Shown here: positions 32,188 to 59,300 of the stretch, in pieces
Numbering within the stretch: position 1 is the stretch's first letter
How the letters are laid out: every line of letters begins with the position of its first letter
Assembly (NCBI GenBank): GCA_963702425.1
Contig: CAVPCQ010000032.1
Location: 1-64,000 of the forward strand
Reading direction: 5' to 3'
From: an uncultured Acidobacteriota bacterium
GTDB lineage: Bacteria > Acidobacteriota > Polarisedimenticolia > J045
DNA length: 64,000 nt
Position numbers and translations under genes: made by a program
The notes under the pieces: generated by a model
What the model was told of the DNA's origin: nothing
The model's database searches: none
What the model saw: only the letters and a program-made list of their open reading frames with translations

Positions 32188-33102
32188 ATGATCGAGCTGA
32201 AGTCGGTTTCGAATCCCCAGCCGAAGGCCGCGCTCGAGGGCGCTTTCACCGAGGCGGTCCCGACTCGAGCGGTGACCGAAGGGCGGGCCGGCTCGGCCAG
32301 TGCCGACACCTCGCGCTCCTTGAAGCACCTGGCCGCCAAGGGCCGCGGCGAGCCGCTGCGGAAGCGCTCCGCGCCGTCTGCTCTCGAGAGCATCATCGGC
32401 CCGACGGACGACCGCGTCCGCATCCTCGACACCGATCTCACACCGTGGCGCATGGTCTGCGCGCTCCGAATGCGCGGTCCTTCGGGATCCGCGATCGGCA
32501 CCGGGTGGTTCGTGGGACCGAAGACGCTGCTCACCGCGGGCCACTGCGTCTACTCCACGAGCTTCTTCGGCGGCTGGGCTTCGGAGATCGAGGTCAGCCC
32601 GGGGCGCAACGGAAACGAGTTCCCGTTCAGGACGGTGAAGAGCCGCCGCTTCAGCTCGATCGATCGCTGGATCAACTCGGAGGACCCGGACTTCGACATG
32701 GGGTGCATCCACCTGGACGAGCCGCTCGGCAGCGAGGTCGGCTGGTTCGCGGTGGGAGCGCTTCCCCCGGGTGACCTCGAGGGCTACCTGGTCAACGTGT
32801 CGGGATACCCGGGAGACCGGGGAATGGGTACCGAGCAGTATCATCACAAGAACCGGGTGCTGCAGGTCACGGACCGGCGCCTCTTCTACGACGTCGACAC
32901 GTTCGGCGGGCAGAGCGGGGCTCCCGTCTGGATCCACGAGACCGAGACCGCGCCACCGCTCGCGGTCGGCATTCACGCCTACGGCACCGGCGGCTCGCCC
33001 ACGGGGCTCGAAGCGAACTCGGCGCCGCGGATCATCCCGGAAGTGCTGGACCAGATCCGAGGCTGGGTGGAGGCAGACGGAGGGTGGCCCAAGAAGGCGT
33101 AG
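32188..33102 (+). CDS. V8/glutamyl-endopeptidase-like serine protease
   Basis: AGGAGG RBS; ALE|SIIG activation-like site; TAGHC, DFD, DTFGGQSG, GIH (Thr190/His213 S1 pattern). Confidence 0.9.
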   Translation: MIELKSVSNPQPKAALEGAFTEAVPTRAVTEGRAGSASADTSRSLKHLAAKGRGEPLRKRSAPSALESIIGPTDDRVRILDTDLTPWRMVCALRMRGPSGSAIGTGWFVGPKTLLTAGHCVYSTSFFGGWASEIEVSPGRNGNEFPFRTVKSRRFSSIDRWINSEDPDFDMGCIHLDEPLGSEVGWFAVGALPPGDLEGYLVNVSGYPGDRGMGTEQYHHKNRVLQVTDRRLFYDVDTFGGQSGAPVWIHETETAPPLAVGIHAYGTGGSPTGLEANSAPRIIPEVLDQIRGWVEADGGWPKKA

Positions 33103-33356
33103 CCCGGACCCGACATCGCATCGTCGTCCTCGACGAGGGCGGCCATCCCGTCGCCGACGCCGTGGTCGCCCTCGCCCGCAGCAGCGTGCCGTTCCCGGAG
33201 ATCGCGCTGCTGACGGACGACAAGGGCGCGGTCGAGTTGCAGCTTCCGCCCGGCGTCTTTGCCTTCCGGGCGCGCGGACCGGGGGACACTGCGGGTGACA
33301 CGGAGGTGACGAGTCCCGGTCCAACCGAAAGTGTCGTGCGCTTGAAGGCGCGCTGA
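33084..33356 (+). CDS. small carboxypeptidase-regulatory-like beta domain protein
   Basis: VLDEGGHPVADAVV..TDDKG..LPPG pattern; sits between two protease genes. Confidence 0.65.
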   Translation: MAQEGVARTRHRIVVLDEGGHPVADAVVALARSSVPFPEIALLTDDKGAVELQLPPGVFAFRARGPGDTAGDTEVTSPGPTESVVRLKAR

Positions 33357-33369
33357 AGGGAGGCTTCCC

Positions 33370-56984: not shown

Positions 56985-58211
56985 TCAGCGTCCCCCGCGC
57001 AGGTCGGCGATGCCGGTGCCGGCCTGGCAGCGTGCCAATGTCTGATCGAGGGCCGGGGTCGGGGTGCCGATGAGACGCTGGGCGACCACGGCGACGTCGA
57101 CACACTCGCGGAACATCTTCCGCTGCTCGAAGCCCCGGGCGACGGCGGTCAGGATCGCCCCGTGCATCTCCGGTGCCAGGCGCGCGACAGCCGGATCGTT
57201 CAGGGCAACGCCCGAGGTCGTCGAGGGGCGCGGCGGCTTGAAGAGCTGGAACGCGTCCCCGACGAACGCCCGCACGTCGTACGCCCCGCCGGCCGGCTCG
57301 ACGCTTCCCAGGAGGAACGCATCGGCGCCGAGCGCCCGGGCGTACCCCGCGGCGAACTCCACCGAGCGGGGTCGCGCCTCGTCGCACGCGACGAACCACG
57401 GCTGGAACTCGGGCGGGAGGTTCAGCGTCTGGAGGACGGTGCCCACGTCGTAGGTGAGCGCGTCCGCGATGCGCCCCGTGAGGTCGGCCTCGCCCCCCGA
57501 TCCCGAAAGCGGGGGACGGAAGTGGCCCACCACCACGCCTCGGGCGTTCTTGAGGACGCACGCTCCGAGCGCCTTCGGCAGGAGAGGAAGCGGGATCTCC
57601 TCCCCGCCCTCCGGCAGGGCCTGCGAGTGCTCGGTGTAGCCCTCGTGCTTCACCAGGACGGTCGCGGGCTCCCGGCAGGGCGCAAAGGCCAGGTCGAACC
57701 GTCCGGACGCGTCGCTCGCGCCGTTGGCGACCGAATTGGATCCGCAGCGAATGTCGATCGTCGCGCCGGCGATCGGCGCTTCCGTCGTGAGGTCGGTGAG
57801 CACGCCTCGCGCGTGCCGCGAGGCCGCGGGACCGGGTCCCCACAAGCGCCAGGCGGCGATCGCGCCGGCGACGGCCAGCAGCAGCGCGACCGCCACGGCC
57901 GCCCGGCGGGCGCCGCTCGAGCCTCTTCCAGGAAGCTTGATCGAGGACTCCGCGGGCCAGGATGCGGCGATCGCGCGGACCTCCTCGACATACGCCGGGC
58001 GCTCGCGCTCGAGGATCGGCCAGAGGCGATCGATCTGCCCACGGTCCTGGAGCAGCCCGATGAAAGCGTCGGCCTGCGCGAGCAGCGGCTCCTGCCAGGG
58101 GATCTCCGGCTTCAGTTCCTCGAAGTCGTCCGTGACGAGACGCTCGAGCGCGTCGCCTTCCTGGAATCGCTCGACGAGGAACTCGCGGAGCTTCCGGTGC
58201 GCTTCACCCAT
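56985..58211 (-). CDS. EAD/death-like N-domain, TM, and extracytoplasmic carboxypeptidase-regulatory-like domain
   Basis: LREFLVERF..LERLV..LQDRGQIDRLW..ERP helical adaptor; TM; GVLTD..PIAGATI..SDASGRF. Confidence 0.7.
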   Translation of the reverse strand: MGEAHRKLREFLVERFQEGDALERLVTDDFEELKPEIPWQEPLLAQADAFIGLLQDRGQIDRLWPILERERPAYVEEVRAIAASWPAESSIKLPGRGSSGARRAAVAVALLLAVAGAIAAWRLWGPGPAASRHARGVLTDLTTEAPIAGATIDIRCGSNSVANGASDASGRFDLAFAPCREPATVLVKHEGYTEHSQALPEGGEEIPLPLLPKALGACVLKNARGVVVGHFRPPLSGSGGEADLTGRIADALTYDVGTVLQTLNLPPEFQPWFVACDEARPRSVEFAAGYARALGADAFLLGSVEPAGGAYDVRAFVGDAFQLFKPPRPSTTSGVALNDPAVARLAPEMHGAILTAVARGFEQRKMFRECVDVAVVAQRLIGTPTPALDQTLARCQAGTGIADLRGGR

Positions 58212-58226
58212 GGCCGGCCCCCGGCC

Positions 58227-59300
58227 CTACGCCTGCAAGGCCGCCGCCACGAGCGGGCGAGCGGCGATCAGCGCGATGGGAATCCCCTCGTTGTAGGCCG
58301 GCTTCGGTTCCTTCGGGTCCCCCGAGTGATGGAGCGCGATCAGCCCGAAATCGCCGTCGAAGACCGGAGACCCCGAGGAGCCCGGCTCGGTCGGCACCGT
58401 GTAGCGCAGGCGCCTTCCGCCGCCCGTGACCTCGAGCGTTTCCTCCATCCCGAGGGCGAGCTTCATCGGGAGCGTCTTCGGGTGCTGCAGGATGGCGACG
58501 ACCCGCTTGGCCGGGTAGTCGACGGGCCCCGAGGGGACCGGCACCCATCCGCGCGCCTCCTCGGCACTCGAACCCTTGCCGACCGGCTCGGCCCCCACCG
58601 ACTCCGCGAGCCGCAGGAGCGCGTAGTCGAGCTCTCCTTCCGCCGGGTCGTGGGGCTTGGGATCGGCTACACCGTCGACGTCGCTCGGCGGGGCCGCGTC
58701 CACCTTCCATTCGGAGGCGAGCGTCACGACACGGCCCATCGAGATCACGCTGCCCGTCTCGGAGAGCTTGTGGTCGAAGCGGCACGACCAGCTCGACGCG
58801 AGCGACGAGCCACCGAGGAGGTCGTCCACCACGTGGTAGTTCGTGAGCACGAGATCCGCCCCGACGAGGAAGCCCGTCCCGCGGCCTTCGCCGTTGCGGT
58901 CGACCCGGCAGACGCGCCACTCGGCGCGCGTCAGCTCGGCGCGCCACTTCGCGACGTCGAGGAAGGTCGCGTTGCCGCTCACGACCTTCTCGAGCGTCGA
59001 CGTCTTGACCGCCGCGGCGGAGGAGAGTCCGACCAGGGCGGCGAAGTCCTGGAGGGCGGGGTTGCCGGAGTTCTGGTTGCGCCCCCCGCTCACGATCTCG
59101 GCGAGCCGCCCGTGCGCCTCGGCCCACGCGATGAGATCGAAGGCGTTCTGCTCGAGGCTTTCGCTCTGTGCCGTGATCGTGGCGAGGTTCTGGTCGAGCT
59201 GGTCGGAGACCATGCGCCGGAGCTCGCTCGCGCTCGGAAAAGCCGCGAGGAGCGCCTGGCGCAGGTCTTTCTTCTGCATTCCGTTGAGCGTCAGAGGCAT
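58227..59300 (-). CDS. EAD1 domain plus trypsin-like protease
   Basis: LNGMQKKDLRQALLAAFP..L..I..LIAWAEAHG..N.GN EAD1 pattern; TLE|KVV; TNYHV, LDYA, TEPGSSGSP, ALHH. Confidence 0.88.
   Translation of the reverse strand: MPLTLNGMQKKDLRQALLAAFPSASELRRMVSDQLDQNLATITAQSESLEQNAFDLIAWAEAHGRLAEIVSGGRNQNSGNPALQDFAALVGLSSAAAVKTSTLEKVVSGNATFLDVAKWRAELTRAEWRVCRVDRNGEGRGTGFLVGADLVLTNYHVVDDLLGGSSLASSWSCRFDHKLSETGSVISMGRVVTLASEWKVDAAPPSDVDGVADPKPHDPAEGELDYALLRLAESVGAEPVGKGSSAEEARGWVPVPSGPVDYPAKRVVAILQHPKTLPMKLALGMEETLEVTGGGRRLRYTVPTEPGSSGSPVFDGDFGLIALHHSGDPKEPKPAYNEGIPIALIAARPLVAAALQA

Follow-up and report, generated by a model that had tools for sequence, protein, structure and literature searches.

The stretch analysed here, called the window, is the first 64 kb (64,000 nucleotides) of a 233.9-kb contig, CAVPCQ010000032.1, from the genome bin of an uncultured Acidobacteriota bacterium (5.1 Mb in 42 contigs, 91% complete, G+C about 70%). 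Between 30 and 60 kb it holds an island of genes in which five trypsin-fold proteases, Try1 to Try5, lie among a bacterial gasdermin and other putative effectors. An initial annotation had proposed that these proteases are Glu-specific, and that Leu-Glu (LE) at domain junctions marks a single cleavage code for a cytoplasmic, caspase-like cascade of zymogens and death effectors.

Genes were called from G+C at third codon positions (GC3) and Pfam matches. The island begins with an eCIS_core/DUF4157 protein, Try1, two subtilases, an amidohydrolase, an integrase fragment, Try2, Try3 and a STAND NTPase. It continues with a metalloprotease, a GH108 lysozyme, a small protein, Try4, the gasdermin, a patatin and three TIR proteins, and ends with an SH3 protein, a weak EAD1-like protein and the EAD1-trypsin Try5. 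Taken singly, the proteins had their nearest named relatives in metagenome-assembled genomes of Acidobacteriota/Vicinamibacteria. The proteases and the gasdermin are listed here; a slash marks the putative cleavage junction.

32188..33102, plus strand: Try1, V8/BIGEP-like S1 protease of 304 aa (Pfam Trypsin/Trypsin_2); junction ALE67/SIIG, Glu codon 32386-32388.
40305..41468, plus strand: Try2, Pfam trypsin with a helical N-terminal region; junction ALE102/AIV, Glu codon 40608-40610.
41472..43148, plus strand: Try3, Pfam TPR-S and Trypsin_2; junction KAE303/ATFG, Glu codon 42378-42380.
49824..50549, minus strand: Try4, stand-alone protease of 241 aa, starting at Met22 of an open reading frame that reaches 50612; junction GLE/AVIG, Glu codon 50478-50480.
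50765..51541, plus strand: bacterial gasdermin of 258 aa, beginning MSC; linker GGAALE239/AV, Glu codon 51479-51481, then a 19-residue tail.
58227-59351, minus strand: Try5, Pfam EAD1 (7e-18) and Trypsin_2; junction TLE121/KVV, Glu codon 58989-58991.

All five proteases matched Pfam Trypsin or Trypsin_2, with the catalytic His in a T-N/A-x-H motif and the catalytic Ser in GxSG. The pocket pattern that had been taken as Glu-specific was present in 5/5: Thr stands at position -5 from the catalytic Ser, and His lies in a G/A-[IL]-H motif 20-25 residues after it. In Try1 and Try4 these residues align to Thr164 and His184 of V8. Comparison of Try1 with the PDB gave glutamyl endopeptidase 1p3c of Bacillus intermedius (BIGEP; E 1.2e-17) and V8 (2.8e-10), and a profile of 37 Try4 relatives had V8 as its best match (4.6e-11). 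The AlphaFold2 (AF2) model of Try4 scored 84.6 in the predicted local distance difference test (pLDDT), with residues 1-31 below 50. Its top Foldseek matches were FAM111A, Esp, V8, exfoliative toxins and the Bacillus enzyme.

According to PMC5508998 (papers given by PMC number are cited from excerpts), all glutamyl endopeptidases conserve His213 and Thr/Ser190, a pair also present in Gln-specific 3C proteases. The P1 residue was read as Glu or Gln because the pocket Thr and His match those of both groups. On the evidence of the pocket, all five island proteases quite probably accept Glu or Gln at P1. The pocket His was absent from the housekeeping HtrA-like proteases of the genome, and from a sixth Trypsin_2 protein in the window (16238-17536). 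All six Thr/His S1 proteases found in the genome were on one contig, between 32 and 98 kb.

No N-terminal hydrophobic stretch was visible by eye in any of the five proteases, in agreement with the earlier remark that none has an obvious signal peptide. They would be family-like in the pocket, but not classical secreted members. With V8/SspA, Esp, BIGEP and Glu-SGP they share the chymotrypsin fold, Thr/Ser190 with His213, a propeptide and a Glu P1 junction (the last in Glu-SGP; PMC5508998). Unlike these secreted enzymes, they carry adaptor or sensor prodomains (EAD1, TPR-S) in place of a visible signal peptide and lie in a defence context, and their specificity is a prediction.

The junction motifs ALE/SIIG, ALE/AIV, AE/ATFG, GLE/AVIG and TLE/KVV were all found ahead of the catalytic domains, as first read. 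The accompanying caution, that LE is a common dipeptide, was also justified: LE occurs once per 175 residues in the genome, and 0-8 times in each island protein. At this frequency LE near a boundary chosen after the fact is weak evidence by itself, and conservation was the real test.

In the Try4 family (120 members, about 249 aa, stand-alone), the junction Glu was present in 108/120 and P1' was Ala in 100/120. A hydrophobic residue precedes the Glu, and V/I-I-G-E-P-N-F comes after P1'; the five residues before the Glu are variable. The junction Glu was found in 9/9 sequences for Try2 (AME/AVII in Lysobacter) and in 8/9 for Try5. For Try3 it was Glu in 8/9 and Gln in 1/9; LE is usual among the relatives, so the AE of the window is the exception. 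Seven well-aligned relatives of Try1 had Glu (5), Gln (1) or Leu (1). In the CARD-bearing second protease of Lysobacter-type operons the residue was Gln in 6/6 (LMQ/GM, VMQ/AI). The junction consensus is hydrophobic-Glu / Ala/Ser/Lys-hydrophobic-hydrophobic-Gly. As a separate observation, the CARD-protease family (loci L030, L029, L032, L037, L148 and L153) has Ala or Thr at position 190 and retains the His.

Judged from these alignments, the Glu before each protease domain is not there by chance, and the LE observation for the proteases and the gasdermin goes far beyond it. Chance as the source of the whole LE pattern had in its favour the frequency of the dipeptide and the lack of conservation of the metalloprotease, subtilase and exact TLE/V lysozyme sites described below. 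It was ruled out for both the proteases and the gasdermin, since Glu is conserved in five families and in the gasdermin linker, where it covaries with protease type. Chance stands for the metalloprotease and the subtilase; as an explanation of the whole pattern it is scarcely credible.

The spacing from the junction Glu to the catalytic His was 49, 52, 52, 61 and 74 residues in the five proteases, and that from residue 1 to His51 of V8 is 50. This suggested that the junction Glu corresponds to the site of propeptide removal in V8-type enzymes, with a margin of one or two residues once insertions in Try2 and Try3 are taken into account. Self-processing of Glu-SGP occurs at Glu(-1)-Val1; the S1 pocket of V8, BIGEP and Esp forms only after propeptide removal, being completed by the N-terminus that this exposes (PMC5508998).

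Alternatively, the Glu conserved where the domain begins may have a structural role and not be a processing site. The proteases would then still be Glu/Gln-specific, the full-length enzymes would be activated by oligomerisation with the junction never cut, and only the effector linkers would be real sites. The AVIG-like stretch after the Glu is conserved and could be the first strand of the fold, and AF2 was uninformative at the junction, having left this segment unplaced (pLDDT below 50). Against this, Glu or Gln, the only residues fitting the pocket, occupies the position in six protease families with differing N-terminal domains, the residues before it vary, and the solved relatives cited above need propeptide removal to form the pocket. 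We regarded the structural reading as rather unlikely. Processing of the protease zymogens after the junction Glu was the reading that these alignments modestly favoured.

The gasdermin was recognised by PADLOC (bGSDM, 3.2e-79), which also recognised the TIR effector and, as a 'nacht' accessory protein, Try2 (2.5e-40). Its homologues carry PF26164. The ALE239/AV site follows the last strand, the tail motif FVR-x-LD is conserved, and residues 230-258 of the AF2 model were below pLDDT 50. The LE that had been noted ahead of the gasdermin tail was thus present, and its Glu was conserved in the linker alignment and covaried with the type of the neighbouring protease. In the window the gasdermin and Try4 are divergent, with starts 150-215 bases apart depending on the start codon.

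The covariation was seen in loci (L numbers) collected around relatives, 47 from genomes and 79 from metagenomes. A gasdermin match was present in 124 of these, and the linker could be classified in 97 by a simple, purpose-made pattern rule, a simplicity that counts against the result. For loci with an identified protease the outcome was as follows.

Glu-type linker, 20 loci: Thr/His trypsin in 18, CHAT protease in 1 (L031), truncated trypsin in 1, S8 in 0.
Non-Glu linker ([MLIA][KR], Leu-Ser and others), 37 loci: C14/CHAT/C11 in 31, S8 in 6, Thr/His trypsin in 0.

Linker class and protease type were associated at a Fisher probability of 6e-13, with the loci related by kinship and hence not independent. 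On a gasdermin tree built without the linker, each trait changed 5 times (at least 3 forced by well-supported branches) and the two changed together; this amounted to 2 independent contrasts on well-supported branches and 5 on all, and the sign test was not significant. Trypsins that lack the pocket His, in L040 and L047, adjoin gasdermins with ALR/G linkers.

Gasdermins followed by an S8 subtilase (L127, L135 and L158; L128, L130 and L133 by eye) had the linkers ALS, PLS and AVS. These Leu-Ser/Val-Ser linkers form a third linker class that matches a third protease class.

Cleavage of the gasdermin by a Glu-type protease was inferred from this covariation of linker class with protease type. 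A cut at E239/A240 is probable on these grounds. The linker of the Lysobacter enzymogenes gasdermin reads VVAE/AV, and its Glu-Ala bond aligns with E239/A240 of the window. That gasdermin has been modelled as residues 1-240, a prediction that ends six residues upstream of VVAE/AV (PMC10153256).

The gasdermin systems with caspase-like (C14/CHAT) proteases are alike in having the same gasdermin family and an inhibitory tail of about 20 residues that is removed by a neighbouring protease. They are unlike the island in that the cut falls after Leu or Arg (PMC9612521), and their linkers in the collected loci are [ML][KR], not LE. When the cleavage loop for a caspase-like gasdermin protease was moved into other gasdermins, no cleavage followed, which points to exosites (PMC9612521).

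The favoured reading, to which we assign a probability of about 0.55, is that of a defence island composed of several modules that share one clade of cytoplasmic V8/3C-like Glu/Gln proteases, built as zymogens and cutting effector linkers. The build of all five appears zymogen-like, with a regulatory N-terminal piece: in Try1 and Try4 it is a short propeptide, Try2 has a helical region, and TPR-S and EAD1 take this place in Try3 and Try5, respectively. A sensor (the STAND NTPase, or recruitment through EAD1) would bring the proteases together, and each would be cut after its junction Glu, by itself or by another of them. The active enzyme would then remove the C-terminal inhibitory peptide of 19 residues from the gasdermin at ALE239/AV and release the pore-former; this is the best-supported step. 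With weaker support, the patatin (GLE372/AV) and the GH108 lysozyme (GPE177/AT) may be pro-effectors released in the same manner, and the lysozyme could reach the wall through the gasdermin pore. Protease-activated effectors are a known theme; the new part would be the Glu-type variant.

Several observations weigh against this reading. At the proteases, the junction Glu was missing in 12/120 Try4 relatives, and the junction equals the mature N-terminus of V8 and BIGEP only within 1-2 residues, with insertions in Try2 and Try3; to these is added the possible structural role of the Glu. At the gasdermin, the AF2 model was weak overall (pLDDT 61), one Glu-type gasdermin (L031) adjoined a CHAT protease, and the independent contrasts were few. 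The gene linkage was imperfect: a gasdermin was present in 0/31 genome loci of Try4 relatives, and the usual gasdermin neighbour in other contigs was a Try3-like protease. Three island genes are frameshifted, and parts of the island may be dead or mis-assembled. Among the further substrates considered below, the metalloprotease and subtilase sites were not conserved, and that of the patatin was kept only among close sequences. The trypsin-like proteases known from defence systems cleave after Ile (PMC12642450, PMC12799240). Finally, the cleavage events, their order and the cross-talk between modules are all drawn from sequence comparison.

The remaining proposed substrates of the cleavage code are the following.

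33514..35008, plus strand: S8a subtilase, Pfam Peptidase_S8 (2e-24); N-terminal part from 33514, S8 domain in frame 33485-35008.
46215..47753, minus strand: metalloprotease (HETGH); LLE163/GAP, Glu codon 47265-47267.
48536..49159, plus strand: GH108 lysozyme with PG_binding_3 (Pfam) and a conserved 30-residue tail; GPE177/A, codon 49064-49066; TLE181/V, codon 49076-49078.
51581..52780, minus strand: patatin-like phospholipase, Pfam Patatin (7e-29); GGGLE372/AV, Glu codon 51665-51667, then a 27-residue tail.

The LE ahead of the patatin tail was present and kept in close relatives, and lost in more distant ones. When every second row of a 121-sequence alignment was inspected, LE or E was found in the 9 closest sequences and in 0 of the other 52; in the whole alignment Glu occupied the column in 18/121, in a variable linker followed by a conserved C-terminal helix. 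All 4/4 syntenic gasdermin contigs had the site (GLE/SA, ALE/AT twice and GLE/AV). The Glu is kept only at about 68% identity or more, so that recent common ancestry could account for it.

For the lysozyme, the LE ahead of the tail was also present, and in an alignment by eye of seven sequences from gasdermin loci the exact site TLE/V recurred in only 2/7. What was conserved instead was a Glu located four residues upstream, reading [PFL]E/[AS] in 7/7 ahead of the conserved tail. Activation of patatin and lysozyme in the manner of the gasdermin is a tentative proposal, somewhat short of even odds.

The prodomain sites fared worse. LLE/GAP of the metalloprotease was present and not conserved, with Glu in at most 3/81 at the column and in 0/3 of the closest relatives. 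GLE/TRR of the S8a subtilase (33697-33714) was also present, in a frame that differs from that of the S8 domain because of a frameshift near 33810; the GLE was found in 0/5 distant homologues. These two LE sites are probably due to chance, and as real sites they were rejected. A further candidate, ALE/KV in the amidohydrolase, was dropped, as it was not conserved among distant relatives. Of the single code proposed for zymogens and effectors, the test of LE conservation upheld the Glu at the five protease junctions and the gasdermin linker, upheld the patatin site for close relatives only, moved the lysozyme site by four residues, and left out the metalloprotease and the subtilase.

Two Lysobacter-type loci had, upstream of the gasdermin, a gene for a DUF1353 protein with a weak lethal-factor-like metalloprotease domain (L033, 3369-4925; L026, 3169-4962). 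The proteins end in ALE/AA or AVE/TP, 16-20 residues from the C-terminus, and may be a second Glu-tailed effector. One locus could accordingly carry Glu sites in several effectors, as far as these motifs indicate.

The other genes of the island are as follows.

35110..36688, minus strand: S8b subtilase, Pfam S8 in both of two frames, with a break near 35760.
37785..39194, plus strand: amidohydrolase (Pfam).
39164..39724, minus strand: integrase-core (rve) fragment, Pfam rve 4e-7, below cut-off, between the amidohydrolase and Try2.
43073..46176, plus strand: STAND NTPase (Pfam: DUF4062/TIR-like N-terminus, NB-ARC, TPR repeats), with a frameshift near 45090.
49196..49765, minus strand: small protein with a hydrophobic, signal-like N-terminal stretch, downstream of Try4 on the same strand.
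52872-53603, minus strand: pYEATS-TIR (Pfam); PADLOC PycTIR/TIR effector models match in the three-gene TIR group.
53614-54297, minus strand: TIR gene (Pfam).
54315-55583, plus strand: CAP12/Pycsar-type TIR (Pfam).
55580-57103, minus strand: SH3-domain protein (Pfam), downstream of Try5 on the same strand.
56985-58211, minus strand: CarboxypepD_reg protein (Pfam), downstream of Try5 on the same strand; its N-terminus is EAD1-like at E 0.0015 only, below cut-off.

The three frameshifts (S8a near 33810, S8b near 35760 and STAND NTPase near 45090) reflect either assembly errors in the genome bin or gene decay. Reading of the STAND NTPase in three frames placed its break inside near-identical TPR repeats. 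The long minus-strand open reading frame of S8b extends to 37450, and its upstream part was noncoding by GC3; the first 250 or so residues are an antisense shadow. An apparent link of S8b to Glu-type gasdermins was rejected, being the antisense shadow of an amidohydrolase-type gene. On the plus strand, GC3 indicated a gene at about 36900-37600 (36871-37611 of the window); the amidohydrolase gene may have its N-terminal part here.

The island genes were scarce in a sample of the phylum. Try1 was found in 8/400 genomes, Try5 in 5/400 and the N-terminal region of S8a in 6/400, and these three were found in none of the 5 same-family genomes searched.

The gasdermin / CARD-NLR operon of Lysobacter enzymogenes, which Johnson is said to have described in 2022, reportedly consists of a gasdermin, two trypsin-like proteases and a STAND/NLR-like ATPase. 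Try2, Try3 and the STAND NTPase on one strand (40305-46176) have the same arrangement of two consecutive trypsin-like proteases and a STAND NTPase, and Try2 is homologous to 'protease 1' of the Lysobacter operon L030 (phmmer 2.6e-29). A bacterial gasdermin is also present in the island, with a lysozyme and a phospholipase nearby, as these two genes also adjoin the Lysobacter operon (PMC9612521). The Lysobacter gasdermin and protease 1 share the Glu/Ala motifs.

The two systems are unlike in other respects. The island gasdermin lies 7.6 kb from the two-protease operon and adjoins Try4. Upstream of Try2 there was no effector gene directly, but the rve fragment and then the amidohydrolase; an insertion sequence (IS) fragment and the amidohydrolase thus fill the effector slot. 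Try3 showed a TPR-S match at its N-terminus (Pfam, 7.7e-13) and no recognised CARD, and Lysobacter protease 2 has a closer relative than Try3. The island STAND has a DUF4062/TIR-like N-terminus and a frameshift.

Parts of the island recurred in other contigs, in shuffled order and in smaller, differently combined sets. The order Try4-gasdermin-patatin was retained in L085. In L089-L092, L096, L104, L112 and L151 a gasdermin was accompanied by the lysozyme, the metalloprotease, the small signal-bearing protein and Try3-like or Try1-like proteases. The metalloprotease family is large, and its members adjoin gasdermins in L089 and L112; relatives of the small protein do so in L089, L091, L092 and L109. 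Distant relatives of the amidohydrolase adjoin Glu-type gasdermins in L096, L098, L101 and L151, and pYEATS occurs fused to STAND NTPases beside such gasdermins in L006, L021, L022 and L026. From this recurring co-occurrence in related contigs, the components were taken as a recurrent guild. The island is a mosaic of at least three modules: a Lysobacter-like operon of two proteases and STAND, the EAD1-protease, and the gasdermin/patatin/lysozyme cluster.

Try4 as a dedicated family of gasdermin proteases was dropped, on account of the 0/31 genome loci noted above. In L049-L054, L057, L078, L064 and L065, the neighbours of the Try4 family were M10/astacin+PPC metalloproteases (6 loci), M14, hemocyanin/tyrosinase and papain-like proteins. 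The M10/astacin, oxidase, M14 and papain-like types are often made as pro-forms. SLATT was also found among the neighbours of Try4 relatives.

A single island-wide cascade, as proposed in the initial annotation, would have any protease cut the LE of the others and of every effector, the metalloprotease and subtilase included. The shared pocket and the Glu junction in 5/5 proteases agree with it, as does the mixture of long- and short-prodomain forms, which resembles initiator and executioner caspases. The island genes recur together elsewhere, the Thr/His proteases of the genome are clustered on one contig, and peptidase cascades have been predicted for EAD1 systems (PMC7159879). On the other hand, the island genes are divided among several operons, with both strands in use and an IS remnant and three frameshifts present; neither the metalloprotease nor the subtilase site is conserved; and the parts occur elsewhere in smaller, differently combined sets, with Try4 relatives adjoining quite different genes. 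Exosite recognition is hinted for a caspase-like gasdermin protease (PMC9612521), and defence by the Lysobacter operon did not require the active site of its first protease (Wein 2023 preprint, PMC10312443). We considered a cascade of this extent quite unlikely.

Also unlikely, if a little less so, is that the clade is the bacterial counterpart of caspases: Glu/Gln proteases with one P1 code (hydrophobic-Glu / small residue) that run a multi-tier cascade from one sensing event. The 'initiators' would be the EAD1, TPR-S and CARD forms on STAND NTPases, the 'executioners' Try1 and Try4, and the pro-effectors the gasdermin, the patatin and the tailed lysozyme. The membrane would be perforated, lipids degraded and the wall dissolved.

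The modular reading preferred here also has parallels in other defence systems. The trypsin-like domains of Avs2, Avs4 and Hachiman release an MBL nuclease, Pepco and other effectors by one or two precise cuts (PMC12642450, PMC12799240). These modules likewise have a latent death effector beside a trypsin-like protease, as well as a P1 residue conserved among effector homologues. In contrast to the Glu/Gln predicted for the island, their P1 is Ile (Arg or Asp for caspase-like partners), and the island proteases are several separate proteins with prodomains of their own. For EAD1 systems with several trypsin-like peptidases, peptidase cascades were predicted from domain architecture (Kaur et al. 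2020, PMC7159879). These conflict systems share with the island an EAD1-fused trypsin, STAND NTPases, TPR-S, pYEATS and lysozyme-type effectors as well as the predicted cascade; they differ in that the excerpts of that paper name no cleavage specificity or shared site. An EAD1-bearing STAND was not found in the window. A literature search found no paper joining bacterial gasdermins with glutamyl-endopeptidase or Glu-specific cleavage in this sense, the final texts of Johnson 2022 and Wein 2025, which may bear on it, being outside the search.

Death effectors triggered by proteases are under active study in bacterial immunity, and the cleavage rules mapped so far are Leu/Arg for caspase-like gasdermin proteases and Ile for the trypsin-like domains of Avs and Hachiman. 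If the present clade cuts after Glu, it could be told from sequence which bond is cut to activate many gasdermins and other tailed effectors, and the conserved Glu ahead of the proteases' own catalytic domain would be explained. Defined sites would become available for testing an old idea, that bacterial cell death involves proteolytic cascades. Cleavage after Glu would also give a direct prediction for a system in laboratory use, namely the Glu-Ala bond in the linker of the Lysobacter gasdermin.

The island adjoins an extracellular contractile injection system (eCIS), of which the gene set at 68300-82000 of the contig (L170) comprises baseplate J, CIS tube, Pvc16, gp19-type tube and sheath, then a sigma-54 activator. 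A DUF6519 gene and a 914-aa gene at the end of the window (59372-63404) seem to continue this set; Try5 starts 20 bases after the 914-aa gene, on the same strand. Proteins with eCIS_core/DUF4157 flank the island (30314-32026, and 84002-86314 of the contig). This neighbourhood would suit enzymes without signal peptides that are cargo or accessory proteins of the eCIS and act on other cells, instead of in a suicide pathway. A search of 162 loci around gasdermin and Try4 relatives, 1.1 Mb in all, gave no homologue of the eCIS proteins or DUF4157, and for this reason the adjacency looks incidental for the gasdermin guild. The gasdermin, STAND, EAD1, TIR and pYEATS parts, moreover, match known intracellular defence systems. 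The cargo reading was mostly set aside as very improbable for the island; it may yet apply to Try5 and the two genes downstream of it.

Beyond the window, a second cluster at 84000-101500 of the contig (L171) encodes a TIR + nSTAND1 NTPase, a TIR-FGE fusion and a DUF4062 protein. The sixth Thr/His-type protease (574 aa, 96066-97787 of the contig) lies in this cluster.

Just upstream of the island, at 26043-27902 of the window, there is a TIR-domain protein of 619 aa with a ThsB-like TIR at its N-terminus. After the Trypsin_2 protein without the S1 His at 16238-17536 come a ubiquitin-like protein, YukD, and an enzyme of ThiF/E1-like type (to 18987). This group (16238-18987) matched E1-E2/BilD-like models of PADLOC and is a separate, ubiquitin-like conflict system.

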